A stretch of DNA of 64,000 nucleotides from a virus. Each line of letters starts with the position of its first letter. The stretch's first letter is position 1. The stretch covers positions 32,001 to 96,000 of IMG/VR virus record IMGVR_UViG_3300028388_004019, one strand, 5' to 3'. The translations under genes were made by a program, and so were the position numbers. Under the pieces are notes generated by a model. The model was given only the letters and a program-made list of their open reading frames with translations. It ran no database searches and was not told where the DNA came from. Shown one piece after another: positions 29,401 to 60,251 of this stretch.

Positions 29401-32400
29401 GTAACCGTTGAAGTCTGTGTTACCGTTTGTGTTGGGGTATTAGTCGGGGTCACCCCTGGTGTTTCAGAAGGAGTTACCGTCAATGTTGGTGTTTGTGTTG
29501 GGGTTTCACTGGCAGTCACTGTAGGTGTTACAGATGCCGTTGGTGTGATAGTAGATGTAATTGTCGCTGTTACTGATGGTGTCGGCGTATTTGATGTTGT
29601 TGGAGTAACAGACGCAGTAGGAGTAACTGATGATGTAGGTGTTACTGAAGCGGTTTGTGTAACCGTCGCAGTTGGCGTAGATGTCGGTGTAACCCCTGGT
29701 GTTTCAGAAGGTGTGACCGTTTGTGTTTGTGTCACTGTCGGTGTGATAGTAGCGGTCAATGTTGGTGTAACTGATGCCGTTGGAGTAACTGTTGAAGTAA
29801 TTGTTGCAGTCACTGATGGTGTCGGAGTTACAGAAGATGTTGGGGTAACCGATGCCGTCGGGGTAACAGAAGCTGTTGGTGTGACTGAACTTGTTGGAGT
29901 ATTAGTCGGAGTAGAAACAGGTGTTTCAGAAGGTGTAACAGTTTGTGTTTGAGTAACAGTTGGAGTTACACTTGAAGTTACTGTCGGCGTTACTGATGCA
30001 GTTGGAGTAACACTTGCAGTGATTGTAGCAGTCACAGACGGTGTTGGAGTATTTGATGTTGTAGGAGTAACGGAGGCCGTTGGAGTTACTGACGATGTCG
30101 GAGTAACAGACGCAGTTTGTGTTACCGTTTGAGTCGGTGTAGATGTTGGAGTTACCCCTGGAGTCTCAGATGGTGTTACCGTTTGAGTCTGAGTAACCGT
30201 CGGTGTAATAGTTGCCGTTACCGTTGGTGTAATAGAAGCGGTAGGAGTAACAGATGATGTAACTGTCGCAGTAACTGATGGGGTTGGAGTATTTGACGTT
30301 GTAGGTGTAACCGATGCTGTTGGTGTAACTGATGAAGTAGGAGTATTAGAAGGTGTTACCGTAACTGTAGAAGTTGGTGTAGATGTCGGAGTAACACCTG
30401 GCGTTTCAGAAGGAGTTACAGTTTGTGTTGGCGTGAATGTTGGTGTAACTGTAGCAGTTACGGTCGGTGTAATACTTGCCGTTGGTGTTACACTCGCAGT
30501 TATAGTTGCAGTTACCGATGGTGTTACTGTTTGAGTAGGAGTTACTGATGCAGTTGGTGTAACTGATGAAGTAGGAGTTACTGAAGCCGTCACCGTTTGA
30601 GTTGGTGTGATTGATGCAGTTGGTGTCACACTAGCAGTCGGCGTTACAGATGAAGTAGGAGTATTTGTTTGTGTTACCGCAGGTGTTTCAGATGGTGTTA
30701 CCGTTTGAGTCGGTGTGTTAGTTGGTGTCTCACTTGCCGTCAATGTTGGTGTAACAGACGCCGTTGGTGTTACCGATGCCGTTACAGTAGCAGTAACCGA
30801 AGGTGTCGGAGTATTTGTAGGTGTTTCAGTAGGTGTTGGAGTTACCGATGATGTAGGCGTTACACTTGCAGTTGGAGTAACCGAAGCGGTAACCGTTTGT
30901 GTTGGTGTGATAGTTGCCGTTTGAGTAACAGTTGAAGTTGGAGTATTAGTTGGCGTACTTACAGGTGTTGACGAAGCAGTAACAGTTTGTGTCGGTGTAA
31001 ATGTTGGAGTCACGGTAGAAGTGACCGTTGGAGTTATAGACGCAGTAGGAGTTACCGATGCAGTAACAGTTTGAGTAACTGTTTGAGTAGGTGTGTTTGT
31101 CGGAGTTAACGATGCTGTTGGAGTAACTGAAGATGTTGGAGTAACACTTGATGTTGGAGTAACCGAAGCAGTAACCGTTTGAGTTGGAGTAATAGTTGAC
31201 GTTTGAGTTACCGTTTGTGTTGGAGTGTTAGTTGGGGTAATTGATGGTGTCTCAGATGGAGTAACCGTCTGAGTAGGCGTAAATGTCGGAGTAACCGTGG
31301 CAGTTACCGTTGGAGTAATAGACGCAGTTGGTGTAACTGAAGCAGTAACAGTTTGTGTAACAGTCTGAGTTGGGGTATTTGTCGGTGTAATACTTGCAGT
31401 TGGAGTGACCGAACTTGTAGGTGTTACTGATGATGTTGGCGTAACCGAAGCCGTAACCGTTTGAGTTGGGGTAATAGTTGCAGTCGGTGTCAATGTAGAC
31501 GTAGGAGTATTCGTAGGTGTCACTGCTGGTGTAGAAGAAGCTGTTACCGTTTGTGTCGGAGTAAAGGTTGGAGTCACCGTTGAAGTAACAGTTGGAGTAA
31601 TAGACGCAGTAGGTGTTACCGATGCAGTAACCGTTTGAGTCACTGTTTGTGTTGGCGTATTTGTAGGTGTCAACGAGGCAGTTGGTGTAACCGAAGCAGT
31701 TGGTGTTATTGATGATGTTGGAGTAACCGAAGCAGTTACCGTTTGAGTCGGAGTTATAGTTGCAGTTTGTGTAACTGTTGATGTTGGGGTATTAGTTGGA
31801 GTAACTGCGGGGGTTGAAGAAGCAGTGACAGTTTGTGTTGGCGTAAATGTCGGAGTGACCGTGGCAGTTACCGTTGGTGTGATAGTTGCAGTTGGTGTAA
31901 ATGTTGGAGTAACCGTAGCCGTAACTGTTGGTGTTATTGAGGCAGTTGGTGTTACACTAGCGGTTGGAGTAACTGAAGATGTAGGCGTTACCGAAGCTGT
32001 CACTGTTTGTGTCGGGGTAATTGTAGCAGTTGGAGTAACTGAAGATGTTGGAGTGACTGATGATGTCGGAGTATTAGTCGGAGTGACCTCAGGCGTTGAA
32101 GATGCCGTCACAGTCTGTGTAGGGGTAAATGTTGGAGTAACCGTGGCAGTTACAGTCGGTGTAATACTTGCAGTCGGTGTTACCGACGCAGTAACAGTTT
32201 GAGTGACAGAGGCAGTTGGAGTAACCGACGCAGTAGATGTCACCGTTTGTGTTGGTGTATATGTCGGAGTAACTGAAGGTGTCGGTGTTACCGACGCAGT
32301 TGGTGTTGGTGTTGGAGTCGGAGCAATGAATATAACCTCAACGGGACATGTACACGCACTCGTATTAACATCAGTAATACCCCAAGTACTAATAGTCTCA

Positions 32401-35400
32401 CCCGGAGGTAAAATGGAATTAAAATTATATTCAATTTGATGTTCATTAACCGGCATCGTTCTCACACCTGAATATGTGAATCCTGAACTACCTGTCATGA
32501 AACCTGATATCTCATAATCACATAGTGATTCTGCAGGGTCCGTTAATGCAGCATCATTCCAAAGATTAATTCTAATCTTATCACCCTGGACAATGTAACC
32601 AGCAATATACTGTGTTGTCTGTGGACATGTTGCCGATGGAGTTACCGTCTGTGTTGGAGTAATCGATGCAGTTGGAGTAATTGATGATGTCGGCGTTACA
32701 GATGCAGTCGGGGTAACCGTTTGAGTAACTGAGGCGGTTGGTGTAACACTTGCAGTCACTGTTTGTGTCGGAGTAATTGTTGCGGTTGGCGTTACTGACG
32801 ATGTTGGTGTTACAGAAGATGTTGGCGTATTAGTTGGAGTCACTGCAGGAGTTGAAGATGCAGTAACCGTTTGTGTCGGGGTAAATGTCGGAGTGACCGT
32901 GGCAGTTACCGTTGGTGTTATTGATGCAGTAGGGGTAAACGTAGGTGTTACGGTCGCAGTTACTGACGGGGTAATAGATGCCGTAGGTGTTACTGATGCA
33001 GTTGGTGTAACAGAACTTGTAGGTGTATTAGTTGGAGTAACAGTATTAGATGGTGTTACGGTATTGGTCGGAGTCACACTTGCGGTTGGTGTGACAGAAG
33101 ATGTTGGAGTATTAGTTGGTGTAACTGCAGGGGTTGAAGAAGCAGTTACTGTTTGTGTCGGAGTAACCGTCGCAGTCCTTGTAGGTGTAACCGTTGGCGT
33201 TACTGATGATGTAGGTGTAAATGTCGGGGTAACAGTTGCGGTTCTTGTCGGCGTTACCGATGGAGTAACTGTTGATGTTGCAGTTACAGACGGAGTCGGA
33301 GTAACACTTGCGGTTGGTGTTACCGATGATGTCGGAGTGTTTGTAGGAGTAACACTCGAAGTTGGTGTAACTGAAGAAGTCGGCGTATTTGTTGGAGTTA
33401 CAGTATTAGAAGGGGTAACCGTATTTGTTGGAGTCACACTCGCAGTTGGAGTAACCGACGATGTCGGTGTATTTGTGGGTGTTACCTGAGCAGTCTGTGT
33501 AGGTGTATGTGTTGGTGTTACAGTAGATGTCGCAGTTACCGATGGTGTTGGAGTAACAGATGAAGTTGGAGTTACAGAAGCAGTAGGAGTATTTGTAGGT
33601 GTTACCGTATTAGTTGGAGTAACCGATGCGGTTGGTGTTACTGATGATGTTGGTGTATTTGTCGGAGTAACACTTGCCGTTGGGGTGACAGTAGAAGTCG
33701 CAGTAACCGAAGGTGTTGGTGTATTTGATGAAGTCGGTGTATTAGTTGGAGTTACCGCTGCCGTTTGTGATGGTGTCACAGATGCAGTTGGAGTATATGT
33801 TGGAGTAACAGTCGCAGTCCTTGTTGGCGTAACAGTTGGAGTAACTGAAGACGTTGGTGTAAATGTTGGTGTAACCGTATTAGATGGAGTAACAGTATTC
33901 GATGGTGTAACTGATGATGTAGGAGTATTTGTAGGTGTAACCGTATTAGATGGAGTAACAGTATTCGATGGTGTAACTGATGATGTAGGAGTATTTGTAG
34001 GGGTAACAGTATTTGACGGAGTTACAGTATTTGTTGGAGTATACGAAGGTGTTACCGTATTTGTTGGGGTAACCGATGCAGTTGGCGTAACTGAACTGGT
34101 TGGTGTATTCGTAGGCGTAACAGTATTTGTTGGAGTATACGAAGGTGTTACCGTATTTGTTGGGGTAACCGATGCAGTTGGCGTAGCAGTTCTTGTCGGT
34201 GTCCTTGTAGGACTTACCGATATCGAAGGAGTAACTGAAGGAGTAACCGTCGCGGTTCTGGTCGGTGTTCTAGTAGGACTTACTGAAATAGAAGGCGTAA
34301 CCGTTGCAGTTCTCGTAGGGGTCCTTGTAGGTGTTCTAGTAGGACTAACCGAAATAGAAGGCGTAACCGTTGCAGTTCTGGTCGGTGTACGTGTTGGTGT
34401 TGGTGTAGGTGATGGACATGACGGACACTCCCCATAACCACAAATACTCTCAATCCAGTTTGGTGCAGGTATAAATAAATCAGGAATACCAGTACTCGTA
34501 GATGTTATCTGATAACACGCATTATTACCAAATGGATTAATAACACCATCACCCTGAAATAATACCGTACCTGATGTTGTTGACGCAATGAAAGTATCAT
34601 TAGAGTCACAACAATTAACCATTAAATACTTATCAACAGCTGGTGTTGAAGTCGGTGTCGGAGTACGAGTTGGAGTACTCGTTGGAGTTCTTGTTGGAGT
34701 TCTTGTTGGTGTACGAGTTGGTGTCGGTGGTATTGTCGTAGGTGTAGGAGTAGGTGTCGGCGTTACAGGTGTGTCACCACAACATTCTGTACATGTTTGA
34801 TATGCAGTTGCACTACAAGTCTCCACAGGTTCACAATCAGGAACAATACCTTCAACAAAGTAACAACAACCATCACAGTTATCTAACTTAACAACTTGAC
34901 CAGCATTTGGACATGGACTTATATTAAGGGATACAAATTGACCAGAGTATTGATAGTTACATGTTCCACAAGCTTCTGGGTCAATATCAATACAAGGGAT
35001 AAGGAATGCACAACAGGTTTGATTAAGATTCATTATATCATAACCAACACCAGGTTCCATACCAGGTTCATAAGGTGTTGGAGTACCCTCACCCTCACAT
35101 TCTTCACAATTATTAAATGTCTGTACTACACTACCAATAAAACTAATATTAGCTTCTGAACAATTTTCAGCACATGAACCTGACCTGAAAACCTCCCAAC
35201 AAACATTAATATTATCAACAAAAGCCTGACCTACTTGAAGATTATAAACATTTTGTATACAGGCAACAGAACTTCTCGTCCTACAATCTCTAATACAAAC
35301 ATAACCTACATTGTGAACAATATACCCATCTAAGATATAGTAATTAGGACCACTAAGAGAAAGGTTATAGATTGGGTCGAAAGAATATACAATCTCTTTG

Positions 35401-35774
35401 GATTCAACAGGTTCGTGAATAACCTCACCGTCAACCATTTTAACCATATCGTATTCACCCCCAACAACTAAACTTATGGTGGAAACAAATTGATATTTTT
35501 CTTTGGTTTTGTGGTACGCTAATACGTGTTCATCAATAACACCCAACCCATTAATCTGAAGGTAATTACCCGATTCTTCTAATATCTCGGTAACCTCAGG
35601 AGATTGGACATTATCAACATTAATGGTAGGAAATTGGACCTCACGGAAGTCAACGCCGTTAACAATTTCAGGTATATCAAAAGAAAACAGTTGGTCCCCT
35701 AATTGAATATCTTCAATATTCTTTACGGAACCATCTGATAATAATACTTTCTGTCCTAACTTATAACCTGCCAT
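26412..35774 (-). CDS. giant (3120 aa) mucin-like Thr/Pro-repeat protein with N-terminal Hint domain, Cys-rich modules and a vWA-like domain
   Basis: Uninterrupted 9.4-kb ORF. Hint blocks in aa 1-155, about 2000 aa of TPTxSx hexads, and a YYDSSGSM MIDAS-like motif. Confidence 0.9.
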   Translation of the reverse strand: MAGYKLGQKVLLSDGSVKNIEDIQLGDQLFSFDIPEIVNGVDFREVQFPTINVDNVQSPEVTEILEESGNYLQINGLGVIDEHVLAYHKTKEKYQFVSTISLVVGGEYDMVKMVDGEVIHEPVESKEIVYSFDPIYNLSLSGPNYYILDGYIVHNVGYVCIRDCRTRSSVACIQNVYNLQVGQAFVDNINVCWEVFRSGSCAENCSEANISFIGSVVQTFNNCEECEGEGTPTPYEPGMEPGVGYDIMNLNQTCCAFLIPCIDIDPEACGTCNYQYSGQFVSLNISPCPNAGQVVKLDNCDGCCYFVEGIVPDCEPVETCSATAYQTCTECCGDTPVTPTPTPTPTTIPPTPTRTPTRTPTRTPTSTPTRTPTPTSTPAVDKYLMVNCCDSNDTFIASTTSGTVLFQGDGVINPFGNNACYQITSTSTGIPDLFIPAPNWIESICGYGECPSCPSPTPTPTRTPTRTATVTPSISVSPTRTPTRTPTRTATVTPSISVSPTRTPTRTATVTPSVTPSISVSPTRTPTRTATPTASVTPTNTVTPSYTPTNTVTPTNTPTSSVTPTASVTPTNTVTPSYTPTNTVTPSNTVTPTNTPTSSVTPSNTVTPSNTVTPTNTPTSSVTPSNTVTPSNTVTPTFTPTSSVTPTVTPTRTATVTPTYTPTASVTPSQTAAVTPTNTPTSSNTPTPSVTATSTVTPTASVTPTNTPTSSVTPTASVTPTNTVTPTNTPTASVTPTSSVTPTPSVTATSTVTPTHTPTQTAQVTPTNTPTSSVTPTASVTPTNTVTPSNTVTPTNTPTSSVTPTSSVTPTNTPTSSVTPTASVTPTPSVTATSTVTPSVTPTRTATVTPTFTPTSSVTPTVTPTRTATVTPTQTVTASSTPAVTPTNTPTSSVTPTASVTPTNTVTPSNTVTPTNTPTSSVTPTASVTPTASITPSVTATVTPTFTPTASITPTVTATVTPTFTPTQTVTASSTPAVTPTNTPTSSVTPTSSVTPTATITPTQTVTASVTPTASVTQTVTPTASVTPTSSITPTASITPTQTVTPSATCPQTTQYIAGYIVQGDKIRINLWNDAALTDPAESLCDYEISGFMTGSSGFTYSGVRTMPVNEHQIEYNFNSILPPGETISTWGITDVNTSACTCPVEVIFIAPTPTPTPTASVTPTPSVTPTYTPTQTVTSTASVTPTASVTQTVTASVTPTASITPTVTATVTPTFTPTQTVTASSTPEVTPTNTPTSSVTPTSSVTPTATITPTQTVTASVTPTSSVTPTASVTPTASITPTVTATVTPTFTPTATITPTVTATVTPTFTPTQTVTASSTPAVTPTNTPTSTVTQTATITPTQTVTASVTPTSSITPTASVTPTASLTPTNTPTQTVTQTVTASVTPTASITPTVTSTVTPTFTPTQTVTASSTPAVTPTNTPTSTLTPTATITPTQTVTASVTPTSSVTPTSSVTPTASITPTNTPTQTVTQTVTASVTPTASITPTVTATVTPTFTPTQTVTPSETPSITPTNTPTQTVTQTSTITPTQTVTASVTPTSSVTPTSSVTPTASLTPTNTPTQTVTQTVTASVTPTASITPTVTSTVTPTFTPTQTVTASSTPVSTPTNTPTSTVTQTATITPTQTVTASVTPTASVTPTSSVTPTPTETPTNTPTPSVTATVTASVTPTASVTPTLTASETPTNTPTQTVTPSETPAVTQTNTPTSSVTPTASVTPTASITPTQTVTASVTPTSSVTPTASVTPTQTVTPSVTATITASVTPTASITPTVTATVTPTFTPTQTVTPSETPGVTPTSTPTSTVTVTPSNTPTSSVTPTASVTPTTSNTPTPSVTATVTSSVTPTASITPTVTATITPTVTQTQTVTPSETPGVTPTSTPTQTVTQTASVTPTSSVTPTASVTPTTSNTPTPSVTATITASVTPTASVTPTVTSSVTPTVTQTQTVTPSETPVSTPTNTPTSSVTPTASVTPTASVTPTSSVTPTPSVTATITSTVTPTASVTPTLTATITPTVTQTQTVTPSETPGVTPTSTPTATVTQTASVTPTSSVTPTASVTPTTSNTPTPSVTATITSTITPTASVTPTVTASETPTQTPTLTVTPSETPGVTPTNTPTQTVTQTSTVTPTATITPTTSNTPTPSVTSTVTASITPTASVTPTLTSSVTPTVTQTQTVTPSETPGVTPTSTPTQTVTQTSTVTPTSSVTPTSTVTQTASVTPTPSVTSSVTPTVTNTNTPTASVTPTLTASITPTVTQTQTVTPSETPGSTPTNTPTQTVTVTPSNTPTQTVTPTSSVTPTASITPTPSTTASVTPTVTNTNTPTGSVTPTVTASETPTQTPTLTVTPSETPGVTQTNTPTQTSTFTPTASATPSITPTLTPSTTASVTPTLTVTPSITSSITPTFTPTATITQTVTPSETPGGTPTSTPTSTITPTQTVTVTSSNTPTPSNTPTVTQTPTITSSPASTQTPTVTVTQSPTLTPTVTVSQTPGSSQTPTQTYTPSSTQTPTVTSTPTVTPTHTVTPSPSGVLYDCSVYEITVTKLGNEGLFEYWYDECDETLCGTVRQSHGFIYRVPQTVRICAQQGTVVFPPQYPSSAYTLTTICNNCCSNPDVSPTPTPTNTPTISVSPTNTPTISVSPTNTPTISNSPTNTPSISVSPTYTSTPTVTPTVTPTEGEVFTEFIFIPNATLTPTPSISPTLTETPACIPIDDGTEINIYYDSSGSMDVTIPPLSVAVNTLLKPVLLPFYNNDEDLYDKRVKFKKSDERGYFFLSSLSFDDPTVDKRLNMVFQDEAQTDYTGDGNWGIFTTRTSTFDSDIVRLRSRIDSNSYDIRGEYFQVSGTNQSHINFQNLLIAVEEGLGNYAGIYGLSDKTEIHNTYNVLRQGSSQYYADLIEDAINNLGYCLSPTPTPTQSQTPTPTVTPTLSVTPTITQTVTNTPTNTMTQTKTPTQTVTSTPTQTQTNTPTQTQTNTPTQTQTNTPTQTVTNTPTQTVTASVTPSVTPTNTVTPSITQTPNYVDIYFSGCCETGEATPYSLSVTTTLQSEINQAITAGRTTLYLQNQTGISDQCVSFYTSSTGTETKLGVINGQFIGNNGNLWTGGPSEVYVDCSECTSPAEHPCGG
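33868..33999. repeat. exact 66-bp tandem duplication inside the giant mucin-like gene
   Basis: ggtgtaaccgtattagatggagtaacagtattcgatggtgtaactgatgatgtaggagtatttgta occurs twice in tandem. Confidence 0.85.
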
Positions 35775-35820: not shown

Positions 35821-38181
35821 TCAGGATTCTTTCCTCAAACTTCCGTCGTAATGGTCAAATCTATCGTGTTCAGTCGGACTTAATAACAAGATACCTGGTT
35901 TAATGTTACCCTTGATTGTTTCTTGGAACATATAAGACATCCAAGTTTGCTCATAAGGACGAGCCCATTTCTCCGTTAAGAACATCTTTTCATTACCGTA
36001 TTTCGATACAATCTGAGGCCAGTTACAGTAATAAATCTCACCATGTGCAAATGGTATTCCTTGGAATGTGTCTATTTTAGTGATTTTAGTTTTTGGTGCG
36101 TTAGGGTCCAATCCTTGAACAGGTAGATTTGGTTTTTCTGGCCAATGTTCTTCCCTAATATGTTGTGGAACATTATACCACGCCCATTGAACCGTATTGT
36201 CACCATAAAATTCTGTATAAGATAACTTTAAGAAATCAAAGTTGTTTTTCTTTGCAATTTTTAATGAGTTTCTGTATAGATTCTTCACATATCTGTTGAA
36301 TCCATTCTTACAAACCTCACCTTGTTTTGGATAGAAGAACATATCATCTTCAAAGAAGAAATAATAATCAAATCCTCTCTCCTCAGCATCCTCAGCAACC
36401 CACTGACGACCACCACAAATACCTAAGTTGTCTTTCTTAACATAAATCATATTATATTCTTTTGCCAACTCTTCATATTCAGGTGATGTCGATAAATCTG
36501 TTGAATTATCTAAGACAACCCATTGAGGTTTCGTCACAAAATCCTCATCATATTGTTTCATCGACTCAATCAATGTTTTTATCTGATTTGGACTATTAAA
36601 TGTAATAACATATAAACCTACATTGGTAATATCTAAATCATTTTTGATTACCTCAAACCTCATCTCATCCATCGGTTTGTGTCTATCCTGTTTGACATCC
36701 TCAAAGAACTTATTAATCAACCCATTCCCTTCGATTGGGAAGTATTGGTAGTTCTCAGGGTATCTATATAACAATAAGGTAAATAGAGACTCCTCAGTAC
36801 CCATATAACCCTGATTAAGGGTGGATTTCATAATACCGTAATACTCATTATTAAAATCAGCAATATCTTCAATAGGACCACCAAAGAACCCACCACGACA
36901 AACTTTATTGACTTTAGCATTTGCAATCTCATTCATCTTATTAATCTCGAAACCGTGAATCTCAGTATTCGATTCATAAGGGAACGCAATGAAAGTCATC
37001 TTATCAATCTTTGTCAACTTATCCAATACTCTATCATGTGTAAAGTAACCTGAATGTACGGTATTAGTAATACCAGCATCCAACCAGAATAAGTGTGTTG
37101 AACCAAACTTATCCATAATCTTAGCATCGTGTAACAAATATGGTTTTGACATCACCAATGGATTGTACATATCCAATCTACCTTGAGTAGATTCTGATAA
37201 CCATCCCACCTGATTTTGCCATTCAGGGTTTGTACGAATGTTTTGAATTGGTTCATAGAATTCTCCTTTGAACCACTCTTGGCTACGACTGATGAACTGT
37301 GTTGTCTCATCTGACCTTCTCTCCATAACAAAATCCCTTAATTCCTCATCACCAAATACAATCATGTTGTAAGGTATCTTAAGAATTTCATCAAATTTTT
37401 TTAAATAATGTTCAAAACTACGTGACCAACCTTCCGCTAATTCATCACGTTTAATGTTCCATAACCCTGTTACTATAGTAATTCCGTTGTTTTCCATTTC
37501 TCCGTAAAGTTCTTTATAAATGTATTTTTTTATTCCGACGATATCTCCGCCCTCAAGACCATAAACATAATCATGTTGGTCAAATTTTTGAATGATATTT
37601 TGTTGGTCTTCTTCTTCCAAACTTCCCCACTCTATTCTAACAATCTTTGGTGAATGTCTTTCAAAATCAATTTGTTTGAAGATAACATAGTCATGACCTT
37701 CAGCATCAATTTTAATAACATCATAATCAATGATTTCATGCTTATTTAATAATGAATCTAAGGTGATTGTTGGAACCTTAATTCTCACTCCATATTTTTC
37801 TACAGTATCTCTATCACCTTCACTAGCCAAACCATTTTTTGGTGGATATATTGCACTCATACCCATAAAACAATGGTGGATATCTTTATTTTCAATAGCA
37901 AAAGGATTGATGGTTAACATTTCAACCTCACCATTTTTATCAGACACCGCAGAGTTTTCAAACTTATGTTTGTCACCCAAATTCTTCACCAGTTTATGAA
38001 AGTAATAAGGAATCGGTTCCACATATAAACCTGTGAAATCATATGCGTTGGTATACCCGATTAATTCATCAAATGTTTGTCCGTCCATCGCACCAATATT
38101 AAGTGTAAACAATTTATGTCCTTGTTTACCCAAATGGTGAAGTGCGTGATTGAAATAATCTGTTTTTTCTAATTGAATCAT
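35821..38181 (-). CDS. tri-domain protein: FkbM-family methyltransferase + HtrL/YibB-like domain + GT-A-like domain
   Basis: FkbM motifs NIGAMDG, VEP and IKIDAEGHD; HtrL-like ITIVTGLWNIKR...RSFEHYL and FWLDAG; C-terminal YVITFN...DNST...GICGGRQ...FFEDD (DxD-like). Confidence 0.75.
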   Translation of the reverse strand: MIQLEKTDYFNHALHHLGKQGHKLFTLNIGAMDGQTFDELIGYTNAYDFTGLYVEPIPYYFHKLVKNLGDKHKFENSAVSDKNGEVEMLTINPFAIENKDIHHCFMGMSAIYPPKNGLASEGDRDTVEKYGVRIKVPTITLDSLLNKHEIIDYDVIKIDAEGHDYVIFKQIDFERHSPKIVRIEWGSLEEEDQQNIIQKFDQHDYVYGLEGGDIVGIKKYIYKELYGEMENNGITIVTGLWNIKRDELAEGWSRSFEHYLKKFDEILKIPYNMIVFGDEELRDFVMERRSDETTQFISRSQEWFKGEFYEPIQNIRTNPEWQNQVGWLSESTQGRLDMYNPLVMSKPYLLHDAKIMDKFGSTHLFWLDAGITNTVHSGYFTHDRVLDKLTKIDKMTFIAFPYESNTEIHGFEINKMNEIANAKVNKVCRGGFFGGPIEDIADFNNEYYGIMKSTLNQGYMGTEESLFTLLLYRYPENYQYFPIEGNGLINKFFEDVKQDRHKPMDEMRFEVIKNDLDITNVGLYVITFNSPNQIKTLIESMKQYDEDFVTKPQWVVLDNSTDLSTSPEYEELAKEYNMIYVKKDNLGICGGRQWVAEDAEERGFDYYFFFEDDMFFYPKQGEVCKNGFNRYVKNLYRNSLKIAKKNNFDFLKLSYTEFYGDNTVQWAWYNVPQHIREEHWPEKPNLPVQGLDPNAPKTKITKIDTFQGIPFAHGEIYYCNWPQIVSKYGNEKMFLTEKWARPYEQTWMSYMFQETIKGNIKPGILLLSPTEHDRFDHYDGSLRKES

Positions 38182-38363
38182 TAACTAATTACAATAAAGT
38201 TTTTCTGCCACCCTTTATACTCAGTCCAAGTCTTACCCAAAAGTTCCGCAGTTTCAACTGCAAAATTGTATTCGTCTTCTCTGTATGTATCATCCATAAT
38301 AATTGGTACTGAAGTGTCCAATCCCTTTAACTTAGGGAAAATATAATTCAAAACTATATTCAT
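38181..38363 (-). pseudogene. 60-aa ORF, possibly an internally deleted remnant of a SAM-dependent methyltransferase
   Basis: Coupled to both neighbours. DTSVPIIMDDTYREDE resembles only the C-terminal part of a class I MTase; no SAM-binding loop is present. Confidence 0.3.
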
Positions 38364-39238
38364 AATTGTTCAAAGAATTTGTAGAAGCTGATTTTACCCT
38401 CCAAAAATTCAGGTGTGACCGATTTATCAGTTAAGTTTGAGTCATCGTGGTACCACGTATTAAACTTAAAACTATTATAATTTTCAGGTTTGTCATAAAC
38501 CATTGTAGACATCATCGCCTCATGGTTCAAAAGAAACTCCTTATCCAAACACACCTGAGCGTAATTCTCAAACCTTTCAAAAAAGTCGGGTAACTTACTC
38601 ACATGACCACCAATAATACCACCAATAGATAAAGAATCATAGTTGTGGTCTTTCTCCAAAATATCATTCAATTTTCTGTGGTCGTGGAAGAATAATGTGT
38701 TTCTAATATCAATTAATCTATCACCGACCCAATTATTGATTTTGTTAAATAATAAAGTATTGAAAATACCATCGTAAGTATACCGATATTTATTCACAGA
38801 TAATCCAGTAATTTTATCAGCATTTGAGTTATACCGTCTCGGATATAAACCAAGATGTGATAATCCACAATCTATCCAATATAGATAATCAATCCCTTCT
38901 TCCATCTCATCTTCCATCAAAGCAATTTTAGCCCATCCGACTTCCAAATAAAATTTGAATTTATCAGGATTTTTTTCTTTAATTTCAATCATCTTTTTAC
39001 TATGACGAATATCTTCAAGTTCTTTGACTTTAATTGTTACATTATCTACCTGATTTTCATCCATATAGTTTTGTAACGCTTCTGCCGTGTTAGAACCTGT
39101 ATAACAAACAATCGGTAAACCCATTTCAGATAGTTGAACCAATGAATTGATGTACCTATCCCAACGAGCTTGAACCTTATGACCAAAGAAAGGGAAATCA
39201 CCCAAACCAAAATATAAAAAAGTTACTAATTTTGTCAT
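38360..39238 (-). CDS. HtrL/YibB-like putative glycosyltransferase
   Basis: TKLVTFLY...RWDRYINSL and YLYWIDCGLSH parallel the HtrL-like domain of the downstream gene. Confidence 0.55.
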   Translation of the reverse strand: MTKLVTFLYFGLGDFPFFGHKVQARWDRYINSLVQLSEMGLPIVCYTGSNTAEALQNYMDENQVDNVTIKVKELEDIRHSKKMIEIKEKNPDKFKFYLEVGWAKIALMEDEMEEGIDYLYWIDCGLSHLGLYPRRYNSNADKITGLSVNKYRYTYDGIFNTLLFNKINNWVGDRLIDIRNTLFFHDHRKLNDILEKDHNYDSLSIGGIIGGHVSKLPDFFERFENYAQVCLDKEFLLNHEAMMSTMVYDKPENYNSFKFNTWYHDDSNLTDKSVTPEFLEGKISFYKFFEQL

Positions 39239-40806
39239 TTTCTAAAGTAATAATCCTCTAATAAGAGACAATCCATTTCTGTTTTATCATAGACTTTTAA
39301 AGCATCTGAGTATCTTGAAAGAATAGGTTTACCGTTCACATTGAATGATGTATTTAATAAAACACCAATTCCTGATTTCTCTTCAAACTCAGTCAATAGG
39401 TTATACAACCAAGGATTTTGTTCTTCTGTAACTGTCTGAACTCGAGCAGTACCATCAACATGAGTAATCGAAACTAATTGCTCTCTCCACTCTTCTCTTA
39501 CCGTTGGACAAAAACTCATCCATCTACTCTCACCTTCGAAATCAAAGTATTTTTCAACATCTTCTAATTTACAAACTGGTGCAAATGGTCTGTACCATTC
39601 TCTATTTTTAACCTTCGCATTTAGAATATCTTTCATATCAGGATACGCTGGATTACAAATGATACTACGATTACCTAAAGCTCTCGGTCCATGTTCTGAC
39701 GTACCTCTTACAACACCAACAATTTTTCCATTGGATAAATCATCAGTCAAACTATCCATAGTCAACTCACGTCCTCGTCTTTCTTCAACGTGAGACATTA
39801 ATGTATGTCTGTCGAGAATCGGTACACCAGCATAAGTCACGTCAACCGCAGTTGCTGGTTTCATATGATTCAAAATCATACCAGTTGCAATACCACAGTC
39901 ATTTGGGTTAGGTGGAACAAACACAGGACGGTCTAATATCTGTTGTAGTTTGGTATTAAGAAGTATGTTAAGAGCACATCCACCAACTGTAATCAACGGG
40001 ATATCAGGATATTCATCCAAGAATGGTTGAGCCATCTCCATGAAAACATTTTCGAAGGCAATTTGTGAAGTTTTAGCAACGTCCCATCCTGTTTGTCCTG
40101 TAAATCGGTTATTCATATCGAAAACCAATCCTGTTTGTTCACCTAATTCACCCAAAAAATCGATATAGTTCAAACCATCGGGTTTTCTTCTATAGTAATT
40201 TTCGAAGTGTGGTAACCAATCTTCATTTACCTCACCATAAGAACATAGTCCCATGATTTTACCAGAATATACTAAGTTACCAATATTTAATGCGGGTTCC
40301 TTACGAATATCACCCAAATAATCACCAAATGACATATAAGGGAAACCTAAATCTAAATTATATTTGTCCAATAAGGTTATAGTTTCTCTATCAGACGCAT
40401 GATATACATTGAAGAAACCGTCATTACCACCTCCATCGAAAGAGATTATCAACGCTTCATTATAATCAGTCTGATATAAACCACAAGCCGCGTGACTCAA
40501 ATGGTGAAGACAGTTGATATGTTCTTTAGCAGGAATAAGTTTTTCATAGTGAACCTTAGTTCCACTTTCTAAAGTATCTGAGTTCAAGTAATAACACTTT
40601 TCATACTCAGAAATACCATATTCATCTTCGATAAATTTCAAGATATGTTTAAGTAGATAAGGTCTTGTATATGAAACCAAATACTGAGCATAACCAGCAT
40701 TCTTTTCACTCAAAAATCTTTCTACTTCAATTACTGTAATTAATTCTCCATTCTCCTCAACCGCAACCGCCGCGTTGTGAGAACCATAAAACGCAATATT
40801 CGCCAT
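39235..40806 (-). CDS. carbamoyltransferase (NodU/CmcH family)
   Basis: GSHNAAVA, ERF, HHLSHAA, SFDGGG, GKIMGL, GGCALN, PNDCG, EHGPRALGNRSI, RPFAP, HVDGTARVQ and LNTSFN motifs. Confidence 0.95.
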   Translation of the reverse strand: MANIAFYGSHNAAVAVEENGELITVIEVERFLSEKNAGYAQYLVSYTRPYLLKHILKFIEDEYGISEYEKCYYLNSDTLESGTKVHYEKLIPAKEHINCLHHLSHAACGLYQTDYNEALIISFDGGGNDGFFNVYHASDRETITLLDKYNLDLGFPYMSFGDYLGDIRKEPALNIGNLVYSGKIMGLCSYGEVNEDWLPHFENYYRRKPDGLNYIDFLGELGEQTGLVFDMNNRFTGQTGWDVAKTSQIAFENVFMEMAQPFLDEYPDIPLITVGGCALNILLNTKLQQILDRPVFVPPNPNDCGIATGMILNHMKPATAVDVTYAGVPILDRHTLMSHVEERRGRELTMDSLTDDLSNGKIVGVVRGTSEHGPRALGNRSIICNPAYPDMKDILNAKVKNREWYRPFAPVCKLEDVEKYFDFEGESRWMSFCPTVREEWREQLVSITHVDGTARVQTVTEEQNPWLYNLLTEFEEKSGIGVLLNTSFNVNGKPILSRYSDALKVYDKTEMDCLLLEDYYFRK

Positions 40807-42074
40807 TATAATGTACCTGTTAGTCTATCACACCATCCTTTTGAAGTTGAATAAGGCCAAACAACCCAATAAGCTGGTTTTTCAGTTATGTTAAATTGTC
40901 TCCAAACTTTACAGTAACCGTCAGGGTCATTCATCATACGGTCAATCTCTGCTCTGTCTGCATCCTTTCTGTAAATAGTGTTATCTTCCTTATCGTGGAA
41001 AGCAACAACCCAATATTCATAATCTTTCTCAGGAACTTGCTCATAACCAACATCAATACAATGTTTGTAAATAGTCGCAAAACTCTCCAACCATTCTTCT
41101 TTCGACACATATGAATCAATACCTGGGTTCGGTGGGTAGTTTTTATCTAAAGTGTATTGTTGTACACCTCTTTTACTGAATTTCAAACCTGAAAACTCTT
41201 CATATTCTTCCAAAGACCTCGTTGGACCAAACCCGTATTTACCTTCGTGACCTTCTTGAGATTCACCATCCATACCAAATAATTTTCTATTTGTTAAGTG
41301 TGAAGTATTGTTTTTACTGACCCAATCTTTATCATCATCCCATTGTTTAGTTCTACCTTTACGAGTATATTCGTGCCAAATCAAAACTTTGTGTGGATGG
41401 AACATATCATATCCCCATGTAAACGCTCTCGCCGCGATTGAAATCTCTTCCCCGTGGAAGTAGTACTCAGGATTGTGTTGAACCTCATTACTGAATTCAC
41501 CCAATGTGAAGCAGAAATGTGCCGAGTAAAATCTTGCAGGAACAGGTGTATCCAATTCTCTCCAACCTGGTATAGTCTCAGGTAAAAAGAATACCGCACC
41601 TTCAGGAATGAAACGGTCAAAGACCATTCTCCACGGTTCTTGCACTCTCGCCGCTGGGTCATTATCAGGGTCAAATGATGAAACATAACCTGTCAATAAA
41701 GGTTTCGGAATACCCATACCTTGTAAATCTTTGACCATCTTAATCATCTCCACGTCCCAATTTTTCTCAAATCTCATGTGTGAATCAATCTGTAATGTAT
41801 ACATTTCCCCGTCATACATCTGTTGAATCTGATTTCTTGCCCAACAGGCACCTTTAGACTCTTCATAAGGAACATCCATTATTCTGAATCTCTCATCATC
41901 ACGGTACTTGTCAAGGTTATCAAATCCATCTTCAGGATGGTATTGTCTACAAATCCCCAATATAACATTTTGGGGTCTTTTTGCGTTTTTTAACATATCT
42001 TCTATAGTTGGGACCAACTCAGGGTCTCGATATGACGCAATCTGTACGAAAATTTTCTGTGCTCTTCTTGCCAT
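40806..42074 (-). CDS. GT60-like (Pfam GlcNAc) polypeptide/hydroxyproline N-acetylglucosaminyltransferase
   Basis: IFVQIASYRD, GACWAR, QIDSHMRF..NWD, SAHFCF and GEE...AARAFTWGYD match the Gnt1/OGNT family pattern. Probable start MARRAQK at 42074. Confidence 0.8.
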   Translation of the reverse strand: MARRAQKIFVQIASYRDPELVPTIEDMLKNAKRPQNVILGICRQYHPEDGFDNLDKYRDDERFRIMDVPYEESKGACWARNQIQQMYDGEMYTLQIDSHMRFEKNWDVEMIKMVKDLQGMGIPKPLLTGYVSSFDPDNDPAARVQEPWRMVFDRFIPEGAVFFLPETIPGWRELDTPVPARFYSAHFCFTLGEFSNEVQHNPEYYFHGEEISIAARAFTWGYDMFHPHKVLIWHEYTRKGRTKQWDDDKDWVSKNNTSHLTNRKLFGMDGESQEGHEGKYGFGPTRSLEEYEEFSGLKFSKRGVQQYTLDKNYPPNPGIDSYVSKEEWLESFATIYKHCIDVGYEQVPEKDYEYWVVAFHDKEDNTIYRKDADRAEIDRMMNDPDGYCKVWRQFNITEKPAYWVVWPYSTSKGWCDRLTGTL

Positions 42075-42136
42075 AATTTTAATGTTTGTAATAAGAATAA
42101 TCAAAGATTATTTAAGATAAAGTGATATTTATAGAT

Positions 42137-42310
42137 ATGAAACTTCTAAAAACAATAAAACATTTAGTACAAGAGTCGGAAGAAAACTTGGAAAACGCAT
42201 TACATACTAATACGTCACCGAAAGAACTTAAGGCTTTAGAAGAAAACTATACTGAATCTTTGAATCTACTTTCATTATTTGAAAGTTTAGAGCAAGAAAA
42301 AGAGGACTAA
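42137..42310 (+). CDS. small acidic protein
   Basis: ATG at 42137 lies 4 nt after a TATTTAT motif (42126-42132); MKLLKTIKHLVQESEE... Confidence 0.6.
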   Translation: MKLLKTIKHLVQESEENLENALHTNTSPKELKALEENYTESLNLLSLFESLEQEKED

Positions 42311-42328
42311 TTTCTTAACCCTCTTTTT
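42297..42328 (-). terminator. intrinsic terminator of the fibre gene (possibly bidirectional)
   Basis: Minus strand GAGGGTTAA-GAAA-TTAGTCCTC-TTTTT, with G:U pairs and a GNRA loop; T run on the plus side as well. Confidence 0.7.
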
Positions 42329-42354
42329 TTATCACTTTTCTTTATATTGTTTTA

Positions 42355-50547: not shown

Positions 50548-53481
50548 TTAATTCACCAACCCACCTTTAAAGTAGAGAGTTGTTGAACTGTTATCCAATC
50601 TAAAGTCTTGCGACGAGTATGTTGTGTATATTCTATACGTACCATTAGCGAATCCAGTAGGATTAGTAACAGTATAAGTGTAATAAGAAGAGGTCAACGA
50701 ACGAGCTGTTAAGTTAGATGAACCTTGACCATTCGAATTTTCTATTTCCCGTACTCTATTAGCAGTTCCAGCACCACCGATAGACTCATCAGCAATAATC
50801 CATGTGTACCAAGCGTCACCTGATACTGTTCCTGAATTAATCTCAGTAGTAACAAATTTGTATTGTTCAATAGCATTACCAAATGAATCGTTACCACCTC
50901 CTGACTGAGGCACTGTCGCCGTCACAATTGAAGGTACATTACCTGTCCCAGCATTTTGGTTGTAGTAAGATAAGTACGAACCTAAATCAGAAGAACTTGT
51001 CGGACCACTACCATTGGTAAATCCATACCACGAAGCACCAGCATTAAACATGAACGTTCCGATTTCTGATGCGTCTGAATCAGGTTCAATCAATAGATAA
51101 GCGTTAGGAACACTTGCAGTTGATGGTGACACAGTCGGTGTCACTGTATTAGTTGGCGTCAATGATACTGTAGCGGTCGGCGATGCCGTCACTGATGGTG
51201 TTGGTGTTAATGAAGTCGAAGGTGTGACCGATGGTGTTGCGGTTACAGTTGGTGTTACAGTATTAGAAGGAGTAACAGTCGTTGTCGGTGTATTTGTTGG
51301 AGTAGGTGTTGGTGTTTCAGTACCTGCTGGTGTACTCGACGGAGTAACTGAAGGTGTGACTGTATTAGTTGGTGTATTCGTATTCGTTGGTTGTGGAGTA
51401 AACGATGGTGTTGGTGTCACCGTATTAGACGGAGTCACTGTATTCGTAGGTGTATTCGTTGGTGTTATACTCGGTGTCACCGATGATGTTGGTGTATTTG
51501 TTGGCGTAATGGTTGGCGTCACCGATGAAGTAACGGATGGAGTCACTGAAGGAGTAACCGAGTGAGTTGGTGTGTTTGTTGGTGTTATTGTTGGTGTCAC
51601 ACTTGCGGTCAACGATTGAGTTGGCGTAATCGATGGTGTCACCGACGCCGTCGGAGTATTTGTCGGGGTTCTTGTAGGTGTAACAGAAGCTGTCACTGAT
51701 GGTGTTATAGTTTGAGTTGGAGTATAAGAAGCCGTCACTGTAGGTGTTACACTTGCAGTAGGTGTGTTTGTTGGTGTCACTGCAGGTGTACTTGTCGGCG
51801 TGACTGAACTTGTTGGTGTATTTGTTGGTGTTGAACCAGGTGTCGATGTTGGAGTAATACTTGATGTTGGCGTATTTGTCGGTGTACCACCTGGCGTTCC
51901 TGATGGCGTGACAGTTTGCGTAGGAGTATTTGTCGGACTCACGGCCGGTGTTCCTGATGGAGTTACAGTCTGTGTTGGAGTACTTGTTGGAGTACCACCA
52001 GGTGTTTCTGATGGAGTTACTGTCTGTGTTGGAGTATTTGTTGGTGTACCACCTGGTGTTTCTGATGGAGTTAGAGTTTGTGTTGGAGTATTGGTAGGAG
52101 TTACTGATAAAGTAATTGACGGAGTCACAGTTTGAGTTGGGGTACTTGTTGGTGTACCACCAGGTGTTTCTGATGGTGTAACACTTGATGTTGGCGTAGA
52201 AGTAGGAGTTATAGAAGAGGTTACTGTCGGTGTATTTGTAGCAGTATTCGATGGTGTCAATGTTGCGGTTGCCTGTGGAGTTGAAGTTGGCGTACTTGAA
52301 ACAGATACTGATGGTGTTACTGTCGGAGTTGAAGTGTATGTTACTGTTGGCGTAGGAGTAGCAGTTTGACTCGATGCAGGAGTACTTGAAACAGATACTG
52401 ATGGTGTTACTGTAGGAGTTGAAGTAAATGTAGGTGACGGCGTTGGACTCACACCACCTGTTGGAGTTAATGATACAGTACGTGTCGGTTGTGGAGTATT
52501 CGTTACTGATGGAGTCACGGATGATGTGACAGTCACTGTCGGAGTTGGTGTTGCAGTATTTGTAGGTGTTGATGTCGGCGTTGTCGTTACAGTAGCCGAA
52601 GGTGTTGATGTTGGTGTAGAAGTTACTGAGACTGATGGTGTCACCGATGGTGTCGCAGTATTTGTTGGCGTTGAAGTTGGTGTTACTGATGATGTAGGGG
52701 TATTGGTCGGTGTTACGGATGAAGTTGGTGTATTTGTCGGAGTAACTGATGGCGTACTTGTTGGTGTGACATTTATTGTTGAAGTTGGCGTATTCGTAGG
52801 AGTCACCGTACTCGTTATAGTATTTGTTGGAGTAGGTGTAGCCGTGACACCGATAGAAGGGGTGACCGAAGCAGTCGGAGTCGGACTCAATGATGTTGTC
52901 GGGGTTGGAGATGGAGTACCTGAGAATTGGTAATCCTCACTCACTGTAAAGTTATTACCTGCAGGTACACCATTAAACGTAAAACCACTAAAGATAACAT
53001 CACCTCTATCAATCAACTCATAGTTTTCAGATGTGGCAGTCAATGCAGTACTCGCCGATAACGCACCTACTGGTACATTAATAGTAGGAGTAAACGTAAT
53101 GTAACCACCCGTAGTCTTACCAATTAAGTTAGTAAAGGCAACTGCTAAATTAGAAGTTTGTCTTACATTAGATTCTACAGTATATCTAGCAACTACAGAA
53201 CCTGGCTCATATTCTGTAGTAATCGTGATAACTTCAGTATCACCATAAATGATGATTTGTTTAGTGACTGTTTGGTCGTCACAGTCAGGCTGATTGTTTT
53301 CGAATGTTAAAGAGTACTGAGTACCTCCTGAGGTAGCAGGGAAATCATACGTCACCCCAGCAACCAATTGGTCACGAGTTTGACCTGTTAATATTGGTGT
53401 TGTAGACGTTGAACCTGTATATATACTGAAGGGACCAAGAGCGTTACTCCCCAATGTTAATCTTAATACAACCTGAGCCAT
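50548..53481 (-). CDS. Thr/Pro-rich mucin-like protein (977 aa)
   Basis: About 600 aa of TPTxTx hexads between globular N- and C-terminal domains; TATTTAT at 53497-53503. Confidence 0.85.
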
Positions 53482-59500: not shown

Positions 59501-60251
59501 TATTACCCGTATAAGGCCTAAAACAAATATTTCCTGGAGTAAAACACGCATTATAGTTAGTCAAATACGCAGTATCCTTATCTAATGCATTACCATCAAC
59601 ACTAATATTAGTAACATCAATATTACACGTAGATTCTTCATCTGTCAATCCATATGTGTAACCATCACCATTAGTGTTATAATAAGATATTGCACCCGTA
59701 GCACTAAATGGGATATCGTTACCACCACAAGGGTTTTGGTCAGTATTCGCAACATCGAACAATGTCAAGTTTCCTCCAAGCCAATTCCAAAATTCCGAAG
59801 AACTTGCGGACCCAAAAACCCAACCCGTTTCGTAGGTGTCACCATTACTATCGATTCTATCCTTTCTAGAGTCTTGAATGTAATTTGTATCAGAAAAATA
59901 GACATCACCATTGAGACCTAATAGGTGATTTTGTCGGTATAAATTGACTAATGCGAAAGTCGGTACCTCCATCCCTGTGGGTGGAAATCCTGACGAACTA
60001 CCACCATGATAATCATCATTTTTCATGGTGTAATCAACCGATTGATTAGGCGTTGTACCGTCGTAGGTTACAGACCAATATCTATGTTTGAAATTGTTGA
60101 AAAAACTATATGTACCACCAGTGAAATATTGTAAGTTTGTGTCGTCGGTAGCACCTGAAAGACCCGTATCCCACTGAATATAGTAAGTATCACCCGTATA
60201 GGTAGAACTCGCGGAAGTTCTTTGTTTGATTACAAAATAATAACTAGACAT
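53547..60251 (-). CDS. large (2234 aa) modular protein with Cys-rich modules, several SprB-like repeats and PT tracts
   Basis: SprB-like units such as [45 protein letters not shown], plus CC modules and a C-terminal PT tract. Confidence 0.85.
   Translation of the reverse strand: [2234 protein letters not shown]

Follow-up and report, generated by a model that had tools for sequence, protein, structure and literature searches.

A GT60-like glycosyltransferase gene and its Thr/Pro-repeat neighbours in a giant phage

The stretch of DNA analysed here (the window) comprises 64,000 nucleotides, bases 32001-96000 of the 183,755-bp IMG/VR record IMGVR_UViG_3300028388_004019 (G000), which has a G+C content of 38% and is estimated to be ~60% complete, and therefore belongs to a phage of ~300 kb. 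The gene in question lies on the minus strand at 40806-42074 and encodes a 422-aa glycosyltransferase (GT) that belongs to PF11397/GT60 by sequence, motif and fold and is not a member of GT27. This GT60-like enzyme probably puts the first sugar on the Thr/Pro (PT) repeats of the phage's own giant proteins, and the genes downstream of it in the operon would tailor that sugar. The reading rests on the family of the enzyme, on the repeated occurrence of PT-repeat proteins beside such genes in phages and bacteria, and on the kept order of the surrounding genes.

Family, fold and domains of the enzyme

The reading frame starts from an ATG at 42074. The open frame around it is longer (40806-42104, minus strand) and holds an in-frame TTG at 42104; because more than 100 metagenomic relatives with 74-95% identity are 422-423 aa long and have the same start, the TTG is unnecessary. 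The features of the gene are as follows.

40806-42074, minus strand: GT60-like (PF11397) glycosyltransferase gene, 422 aa (PF11397, phrog_24687, AlphaFold2 model)
41175-42074, minus strand: GT-A catalytic domain, residues 1-300 (PF11397 in two stretches; GT27 polypeptide N-acetylgalactosamine (GalNAc) transferases as the closest solved structures)
41778-41786, minus strand: D97-S98-H99, a DxH motif in place of DxD, presumed Mn2+ ligands (D97 and H99 invariant; PMC7185993)
41373-41375, minus strand: H234, candidate third metal ligand, or 'C-His' (invariant; suggested by position and PMC7185993)
41076-41174, minus strand: linker or 'middle' segment, residues 301-333, shared by almost every member of the family (local profiles, 150 representatives)
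40809-41075, minus strand: optional C-terminal beta-sandwich, residues 334-422, with predicted fibronectin type III (FN3)/immunoglobulin (Ig)-like topology (model and structural search)

A preliminary description, made from the letters alone, had recognised a GT60-like enzyme from a set of motifs, all of which were found: IASYRD (residues 12-17), GACWAR (75-80), QIDSHMRF (95-102) and GEE..R..T.GYD (208-223), together with the strings YWVVAFHD and WVVWPYS...GW in the C-terminal part. The Pfam search it had proposed returned PF11397 'Glycosyltransferase (GlcNAc)', which we take to be the family of CAZy GT60, with E=4e-68 and a score of 230.9 bits (cut-off 21); the alignment runs in two stretches, over positions 2-43 and 96-350 of the 352 in the profile. 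The assignment holds by this match and by fold, GT27 being closest. The profile phrog_24687 ('glycosyltransferase') spans residues 6-419 (E=7.6e-167), which makes the C-terminal part a component of a phage protein that recurs. By eye, no signal peptide or membrane segment is recognisable at the N-terminus (MARRAQKIF...).

In a 44-sequence alignment reaching down to 34% identity, Q44, R80, D97, H99, F102, W106, D107, E209, E210, R216, G221, P227 and H234 are invariant. In their survey of GT-A enzymes, Taujale et al. (PMC7185993) describe DxH replacing DxD as particular to GT27 and GT60, which are sister families with polypeptide Ser/Thr O-glycosylation common to both, and the metal site of GT27 as completed by a C-terminal His. 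H234, from its place after the GEE...R...GYD block, is the obvious candidate for this residue.

AlphaFold2, run on the alignment, modelled the full protein with a predicted local distance difference test score (pLDDT) of 95.6 and a predicted template modelling score (pTM) of 0.90. Searched against the PDB with Foldseek, this model gave only polypeptide GalNAc-transferases at the top (E~4e-9). In the VIA-align ranking, places 1-29 were all taken by GT27 (Z 19.2-22.5, root-mean-square deviation (rmsd) 3.5-3.8 A over 270-283 residues), while the first family other than GT27 appeared at Z 17.0 and generic GT-A/GT2 enzymes scored at most 17.0. An unrelated GT2 family as best match, which the preliminary description had named as the outcome that would speak against its assignment, was therefore not what the fold search returned. 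Identity to GT27 in the structural alignments is 10-13%, and sequence and profile searches of the PDB found no chain, GalNAc-transferases included, at E<=1-10; GT60 therefore has no sequence-detectable solved relative.

The additional C-terminal part, which had been pointed out as unexplained, is real and consists of a linker of ~33 aa (301-333) and a beta domain of ~88 aa (334-422), both confidently modelled. Local hidden Markov models were built for residues 1-300, 262-334 and 335-422 and run on 150 representatives. The C-terminal module was found in ~80 of them, always behind the catalytic and middle segments and sometimes duplicated, and was missing in 38; most proteins that carry two to four GT copies in tandem do without it, and so do all of those with four. 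Folded alone, it gave a beta-sandwich of 6-7 strands (pLDDT 95.5), for which FN3 domains were the best matches of an exhaustive structural search (Z 6.3-7.8, rmsd 2.6-3.0 A over 73-78 residues), a Z range that, by the search tool's own warning, may mirror only a common strand arrangement. Foldseek with the domain alone returned nothing at E<=0.001, and the FN3-bearing transferase POMGNT2 (E~0.1) was not counted as evidence, being a weak row; an ESM Atlas feature search for the C-terminal part gave no usable match. No ricin-lectin match was found by Pfam in the protein and no beta-trefoil among the 50 structural matches listed for the module. A ricin-type trefoil has ~125 aa and is disfavoured because the module has only ~88. 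As modelled, the module is a discrete, optional accessory domain of predicted FN3/Ig-like type, and probably not a ricin-type lectin such as GT27 enzymes have. Protist GT60 enzymes are without a ricin-type lectin domain (West et al., PMC8724618).

No near-identical DNA was found among GenBank phages, and only four of these carry a GT60-like gene (Xanthomonas XacN1 and Xoo-sp13, Stenotrophomonas CM1 and RAS14; 46-48% identity). The best matches in a viral structure library are UniProt entries named 'Glycosyltransferase, GlcNAc' from uncultured Caudovirales, Megaviridae samples and Pandoravirus, so the presence of the family in viruses is already on database record. A literature search for GT60 or PF11397 together with phage found no study.

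Thr/Pro-repeat proteins and the operon

Directly after the operon stands the gene of a 3120-aa protein, of which ~2000 residues are repeats of the (V/S)TPTxTPT type. The whole protein has 31% Thr, 13% Pro and 11% Ser, and its repeat part ~40% Thr. Three further PT-repeat proteins are encoded within 20 kb of the GT60-like gene, and the gene block upstream of the latter encodes fibre- and tail-type proteins according to PHROG. The repeats of these candidate acceptors contain 13-20% Pro.

26412-35774, minus strand: 3120-aa protein with (V/S)TPTxTPT-type repeats, candidate acceptor by composition, with the motif TATTTATA directly upstream of its start
50548-53481, minus strand: 977-aa Thr/Pro/Ser-repeat protein in the fibre/tail gene block, candidate acceptor (28% Thr, 14% Pro, 14% Ser)
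53547-60251, minus strand: 2234-aa protein with several PT-repeat blocks, candidate acceptor by composition
22874-25066, minus strand: 730-aa protein with PT-repeat blocks, candidate acceptor by composition

Pfam and PHROGs gave no informative family for the PT-repeat giants, phrog_15511 matching only the repeats. Among 61 related viral loci with at least 3 kb of upstream sequence, 51 have a PT-rich open reading frame (ORF), which is the immediate upstream neighbour in 29, counts that come from kin and are not independent; genome-wide, 6 of 141 long ORFs in the window's own record are PT-rich.

The strongest argument for PT-repeat polypeptides as the putative acceptors of the GT60-like clade comes from bacteria, which were scanned with one genome per species. 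Relatives with 35-52% identity, mostly full length, occur in Gemmatimonadota, Acidobacteriota, Verrucomicrobiota, Actinomycetota, several proteobacterial classes and Sphingobacterium. A PT-repeat ORF lies directly beside the GT or its partner resembling the 786-aa protein described below in 11 of 63 bacterial-type loci from ~7 phylum- or class-level lineages; nine of these pairs are co-oriented, that of L152 is divergent and that of L143 is on opposite strands. Other PT-rich ORFs number only three in ~940 kb of bacterial loci, and by chance 0.6-1.9 adjacent cases would be expected (P between 5e-11 and 5e-6). Several of the bacterial PT-repeat neighbours start with a twin-arginine-type signal (e.g., SRRQF.., RRRLLQ..), which hints at glycosylation in the cytoplasm ahead of twin-arginine (Tat) export.

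At the level of phage genomes, TPTxTPT-coding DNA sites were counted in five genomes that carry the GT (XacN1 51, Xoo-sp13 51, three complete or near-complete IMG/VR relatives 21-35), where a reversed-pattern control gave 0-2 sites, and none was found in five giant phages that lack it (Atu_ph07, SCTP-2, RaK2, G and phiKZ; 2.05 Mb in total), a comparison of 5+5 genomes from few lineages. PT segments of 50-270 aa occur in XacN1 in ORF232-237, in ORF369, 370 and 372 beside the tail sheath gene, and in ORF384 (2823 aa). XacN1 virions contain at least two Schiff-positive glycoproteins, and the authors of that study propose that the phage's own transferases make them (PMC5852040).

As the preliminary description had stated, the GT60-like gene is the first of its cluster. 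It opens a run of five co-oriented genes with overlapping starts and stops, from 42074 down to 35821 on the minus strand, the other four of which are listed here.

39235-40806, minus strand: second operon gene, a 523-aa O-carbamoyltransferase of the NodU/TobZ type (PF16861 E=5.8e-64, PF02543 E=7e-18)
38360-39238, minus strand: weak HtrL/YibB-like protein, 292 aa (TIGR02192 E=1.2e-4, far below cut-off)
38181-38363, minus strand: 60-aa ORF whose start and stop overlap its neighbours (reading frame only)
35821-38181, minus strand: 786-aa fusion of an FkbM methyltransferase, an HtrL/YibB-like part and a C-terminal GT-like region (PF05050 E=8.9e-18, PF09612 E=4.8e-13)

The carbamoyltransferase matches the NodU model with E=4.4e-46, below that model's cut-off, and weak GT PHROG matches fall on residues 519-623 of the 786-aa fusion. 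Conservation was examined in 80 related IMG/VR loci with a GT60-like identity of 66-78%. Downstream of the GT60-like gene, a homologue of the 786-aa protein is found in 76 of the 80 loci, of the 292-aa protein in 48 and of the carbamoyltransferase in 2, and no homologue of the 60-aa ORF was detected in related viral loci. In 75 related phage loci the island opens with the GT60-like gene and closes with the homologue of the 786-aa protein, with 0 to 7.2 kb between them, and XacN1 is also GT-first. The inserted genes encode GT34-like (51 loci), GT25-like (40 loci), GT10- and GT7-like transferases, CmcI/TylF/FkbM sugar O-methyltransferases and a DegT aminotransferase, and no lipid-carrier priming enzyme, flippase, polymerase or ligase was seen in the islands. 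The locus is thus a glycan-building island whose first and last genes are fixed and whose middle is swappable. The earlier proposal of the enzyme as candidate initiator gains support from this kept gene order (75 loci and XacN1) and from the Thr/Pro-repeat link in phages and bacteria.

A GT60 domain is fused to an HtrL domain in the protein P0179, which ties the two into one pathway. The XacN1 orthologues stand in the same order, GT, carbamoyltransferase ORF333 (47%), HtrL-like ORF332 (31%) and HtrL/GT ORF330, the last with 39% identity to residues 234-786 of the fusion. The carbamoyltransferase was rejected as a core partner, as it occurs in only the 2 of 80 viral loci mentioned above, plus XacN1-type phages and some contigs binned into metagenome-assembled genomes (MAGs). 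The idea that the neighbouring giant protein is always the substrate was likewise rejected, since ORF325 of XacN1 is not PT-rich.

Several side observations concern the repeat proteins. Residues ~2700-2860 of the 3120-aa protein are non-repetitive and contain a D-S-S-G-S-M-D string resembling a von Willebrand A metal site, without a Pfam match. A 470-aa Thr/Ser/Gly-rich protein at 21478-22890 (minus strand) has SprB repeats (PF13573, E=2.7e-10), as in the gliding-motility adhesins of Bacteroidota. Two more PT-rich proteins (~1070 and ~1116 aa) are encoded at 145249-151821 of the record, ~49 kb past the end of the window. In XacN1 (AP018399.1), ORF232-237 (124048-133104) form a tandem array of paralogue-like proteins of ~430 aa, each with a central PT-repeat block, and ORF384 (272200-280671) is a glycerophosphodiester phosphodiesterase of 2823 aa with at least seven PT blocks in the examined part.

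Others concern the bacterial-type loci. Small TPTxTPT-repeat proteins stand directly beside GT60-like and HtrL/GT genes in L141, L142, L182, L146, L163, L166, L154, L119 and L121; they begin with a twin-arginine-type signal or, in Gemmatimonadota, with a PqqD/RRE-like domain recognised by eye. In Ralstonia, Achromobacter and Paraburkholderia, proteins that look VgrG-like by eye and end in near-pure Thr/Pro tails are encoded on the minus strand at L149:10291-13152, L160:13052-15535 and L179:13096-15591, at a distance of 2-5 kb from GT60 homologues that have the catalytic part only; these Burkholderiaceae proteins were left out of the association count. The closest matches of the genome scan (L108-L111, L114 and L117; 57-72% GT identity) come from MAG bins assigned to Saprospiraceae, Lewinellaceae, Cytophagaceae and Bacteroidia, with a G+C content mostly of 34-42% (L111 50%, L114 62%). 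All six carry a homologue of the 786-aa protein, and L108-L110 and L117 one of the carbamoyltransferase. They are probably phage contigs and hint at a Bacteroidota host.

A small ORF of ~56 aa on the plus strand (42143-42313), between a fibre gene and the GT operon, interrupts the uniform run of minus-strand genes and has a terminator-like hairpin near 42290-42330. A copy of TATTTATA at 42126-42133 (plus strand) was rejected as promoter of the operon, since it lies on the other strand, ~10 nt ahead of the ATG of this small ORF. The window has 14 sites of TATTTATA where 5.4 are expected, a number reached in 0 of 100 shuffles. On the coding strand are 12 of the 14, several of them a few bases upstream of structural-gene starts, including that of the 3120-aa PT-repeat gene (examples, all on the minus strand: 21455, 22930, 26350, 35793 and 50536), and no copy among the 14 stands on the coding strand ahead of the GT operon.

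Proposed reaction and alternative acceptors

We propose that the GT60-like protein is a soluble, cytoplasmic, Mn2+-dependent, retaining GT-A glycosyltransferase acting on polypeptide. The first sugar would most likely be an alpha-linked N-acetylhexosamine (HexNAc) taken from UDP-N-acetylglucosamine (UDP-GlcNAc) and placed on Thr, perhaps Ser, hydroxyls of the (V/S)TPTxTPT repeats before or during virion assembly. The NodU-type O-carbamoyltransferase, the HtrL-like proteins and the methyltransferase/GT fusion may then tailor and extend it. NodU-type enzymes carbamoylate GlcNAc-derived sugars, which fits HexNAc as the first sugar. The FN3-like module at the C-terminus probably assists in binding the repetitive acceptor, a role that is plausible, although a guess. 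The donor sugar, the acceptor residue, the order of reactions and the role of the module are what we infer; the family and fold, the conserved DxH and His, the operon, the gene order and the co-occurrence with PT-repeat proteins are observed.

Several points weigh against this proposal. Donor specificity is not readable from sequence, and GlcNAc as donor, the preference for Thr over Ser or hydroxyproline (Hyp) and the glycosylation of any protein are predictions. The PT-repeat proteins are presumed virion components, with no family assignment that proves it, and Thr/Pro linkers are common in secreted and fibre proteins whatever their glycosylation. The viral ORF counts and the comparison of phage genomes carry the limits given with them, namely kinship and small size. 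In XacN1 the giant ORF325 that adjoins the cassette has 9% Thr and is not Thr/Pro-rich, the cassette borders on replication genes (DNA polymerase, RNase H) on one side, and the Schiff-positive bands are not assigned to proteins. Finally, many family members may use other acceptors, as a PT neighbour is present in only 11 of the 63 bacterial loci.

The acceptor could instead be a non-protein one of the host, such as lipopolysaccharide (LPS) or lipo-oligosaccharide, capsule or a different envelope glycan, or the product could be a free glycoconjugate, so that the enzymes would remodel the host cell surface and not the virion. HtrL/YibB is known from the LPS-core locus of E. coli (Pfam and NCBIfam names), the GT25-like genes found in 40 related loci belong to an LPS-type family, most bacterial homologues have no PT neighbour, and a review takes the GT clusters of giant phages to be modifiers of surface polysaccharides (PMC7824862). 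We nevertheless regard such a role as unlikely: the closest folds are polypeptide transferases and not LPS enzymes, the islands show none of the carrier-priming, flipping, polymerising or ligating enzymes named above, the locus lies inside a block of structural genes between fibre genes and PT-repeat giants, and the link with PT repeats in phages and bacteria would be left unexplained.

Somewhat less probable again is a pathway of the Gnt1 type, in which a 2OG-Fe(II) enzyme hydroxylates the prolines of the Thr-Pro repeats and alpha-GlcNAc is then placed on Hyp, as on Skp1 of Dictyostelium and Toxoplasma. Gnt1 itself belongs to GT60 (PMC6939170), the Pro content of the repeats given above would offer sites, and two 2OG-Fe(II) oxygenases are encoded in the window at 14800-16172. 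However, the PF13640 match in this genome is below threshold (22.3 bits against 27), 25 kb off and outside the operon, and no PF13640 match was found in two IMG/VR relatives estimated to be 100% complete (G001 and G003), in XacN1 or in Xoo-sp13, all of which have the GT and PT repeats; the Hyp route therefore cannot be general for the GT60-like clade. Two metagenomic proteins, P0123 (2461 aa) and P0124 (1641 aa), do join four tandem GT60 domains to P4H-type PF13640 oxygenase domains, but these fusions represent the tandem sub-type without the C-terminal module. As observations in their own right, P0123 additionally has an AhpC/TSA domain, and the architecture of both proteins points to Hyp glycosylation in another branch of the family. 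The two oxygenases of the window are adjacent paralogues on the minus strand, one (14800-15429) having an OGFOD2-like N-terminal part and passing the PF03171 cut-off, the other (15561-16172) being the sub-threshold PF13640 match.

We give the same low credence to an enzyme that lengthens a protein glycan begun by another one, such as an HtrL-like protein or a host transferase. Gene order is no proof of reaction order, the specificities of the HtrL-like and C-terminal GT-like domains are unassigned, and the P0179 fusion shows only that GT60 and HtrL share a pathway. The characterised GT60 and GT27 enzymes, on the other hand, all act directly on polypeptide (PMC8724618, PMC7185993), the GT60-like gene is constant beside the PT-repeat gene while the intervening genes are swappable, and in the bacterial loci L146, L163 and L166 the PT protein has only the GT at its side and no 786-like partner.

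Glycosylation of modified DNA bases against restriction, as in T4 on hydroxymethylcytosine (HMC), with the carbamoyl- and methyltransferases decorating the sugar, is very improbable: phage glycosyltransferases are classically DNA modifiers, the 786-aa protein weakly matches a beta-glucosyl-HMC-alpha-glucosyltransferase PHROG (E=1.2e-4) and the XacN1 cassette has the polymerase and RNase H neighbours already mentioned, but the fold is nearest to polypeptide transferases, the bacterial homologues adjoin secreted PT-repeat proteins, no ThyA-family (PF00303) match was found in the 184 kb of the ~60% complete record, and G001 and XacN1 each have one ThyA homologue, which scores above the cut-off for the canonical thymidylate-synthase equivalog (328 and 219 bits, respectively, with a cut-off of 108) and so gives no sign of a hydroxymethylase. 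The ThyA homologue of G003 falls below every equivalog cut-off (312.6 against 327; 78.4 against 108) and was left untyped.

Comparison with known systems and implications

GT60 is a family of prokaryotes and protists whose functions are known in protists only (PMC7185993, PMC8724618), where its enzymes start mucin-type glycans on Thr-rich domains and need Mn2+ (PMC3769586, PMC8724618). The phage enzyme shares PF11397, the DxH motif and a GT-A fold beside GT27 with the polypeptide alpha-GlcNAc-transferases of T. cruzi (TcOGNT) and of the Dictyostelium Golgi, and the Thr-rich repeat acceptors there have a counterpart in the Thr-rich repeat proteins encoded next door in the phage. In contrast to them, it is soluble, carries the FN3-like module and stands in a phage operon with carbamoyl- and methyltransferases and HtrL-like genes, and its activity is predicted; having no membrane anchor, it would be cytoplasmic and not a Golgi enzyme. 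Gnt1, the Skp1 Hyp alpha-GlcNAc-transferase, is likewise a cytoplasmic, soluble GT60 enzyme and starts a short sugar chain that further soluble transferases lengthen one after another (PMC6939170). It differs in its need for prior prolyl hydroxylation and its single site on one protein, whereas the candidate acceptors in the phage are kilo-residue repeats; the P4H gene of its pathway is absent from 4 of the 5 GT-carrying phage genomes tested.

The GT27 enzymes of animals and apicomplexans provide the closest structures (Z to 22.5), bind their metal through DxH and a C-terminal His, and place a catalytic domain before an accessory one. They initiate dense mucin-type O-glycosylation as Golgi type II membrane proteins with UDP-GalNAc as donor. 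The phage protein has no sequence-level match to them, and its accessory domain is, by the model, a beta-sandwich of ~88 aa with FN3-like matches and probably not a ricin-type lectin. A comparable cytoplasmic route serves the serine-rich repeat adhesins of Gram-positive bacteria: the dedicated, soluble GtfA/GtfB put GlcNAc on the very long Ser/Thr repeats, further transferases lengthen the chain, and export follows via accessory Sec. GtfA/GtfB have a GT-B fold (GT4) and are unrelated in sequence and fold, and several of the bacterial PT-repeat neighbours described here have twin-arginine-like signals.

Virus-encoded glycosylation of virions in chloroviruses, other giant viruses and mycobacteriophages (capsid and tail) also relies on the virus's own soluble transferases, takes place in the cytoplasm on structural proteins and commonly yields methylated sugars (PMC4691112). 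Other transferase families and acceptor motifs are used in these viruses. We know of no mucin-like repeat substrate and no GT60 initiator described for this type of system.

The nearest described relative is the ORF334-ORF330 cassette of XacN1, also present in Xoo-sp13, CM1 and RAS14, which in XacN1 has orthologous genes in the same order and is accompanied by PT-repeat proteins in that genome. It differs in a carbamoyltransferase of 765 aa, an unfused methyltransferase domain and a neighbouring giant that is not PT-rich. The XacN1 paper named ORF334 as a glycosyltransferase, found glycoproteins in the virion and proposed that the two are connected, without the GT60 family, the type of acceptor or the PT-repeat link (PMC5852040). 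The glycosyltransferase labels of such phage proteins in GenBank and UniProt and the guess of the XacN1 authors about virion glycosylation were thus already known; the GT60/GT27 assignment, the link with PT repeats across phages and bacteria, the architecture of the island and the domain analysis are new. XacN1 is in culture, and since it has both a cassette of orthologous genes and virion proteins that are Schiff-positive, the question is already accessible to bench experiments.

Many bacterial and viral GT60 members have no assigned role, and this locus offers a testable one, the start of dense O-glycosylation of Thr/Pro repeats. If the reading is true, giant phages make their own mucin-like sugar coat on appendage proteins and diversify it by means of the swappable island, which would affect adsorption, protease resistance, adhesion to surfaces or mucus, and recognition by hosts or grazers. 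The long PT 'linkers' of bacterial secreted proteins would then be programmed glycosylation sites with a dedicated enzyme. A broader and rather doubtful possibility is that GT60-like enzymes and TPTxTPT proteins together form a widespread, undescribed prokaryotic and viral system of mucin-type O-glycosylation, cytoplasmic in both settings, with a product that is exported in bacteria and becomes a sugar-coated particle, tailored by swappable genes, in giant phages. Such a system would give a function to bacterial GT60 members. It could also be the root from which the GT60/GT27 mucin glycosylation of eukaryotes evolved, and would shed light on how mucin-type glycosylation arose there.

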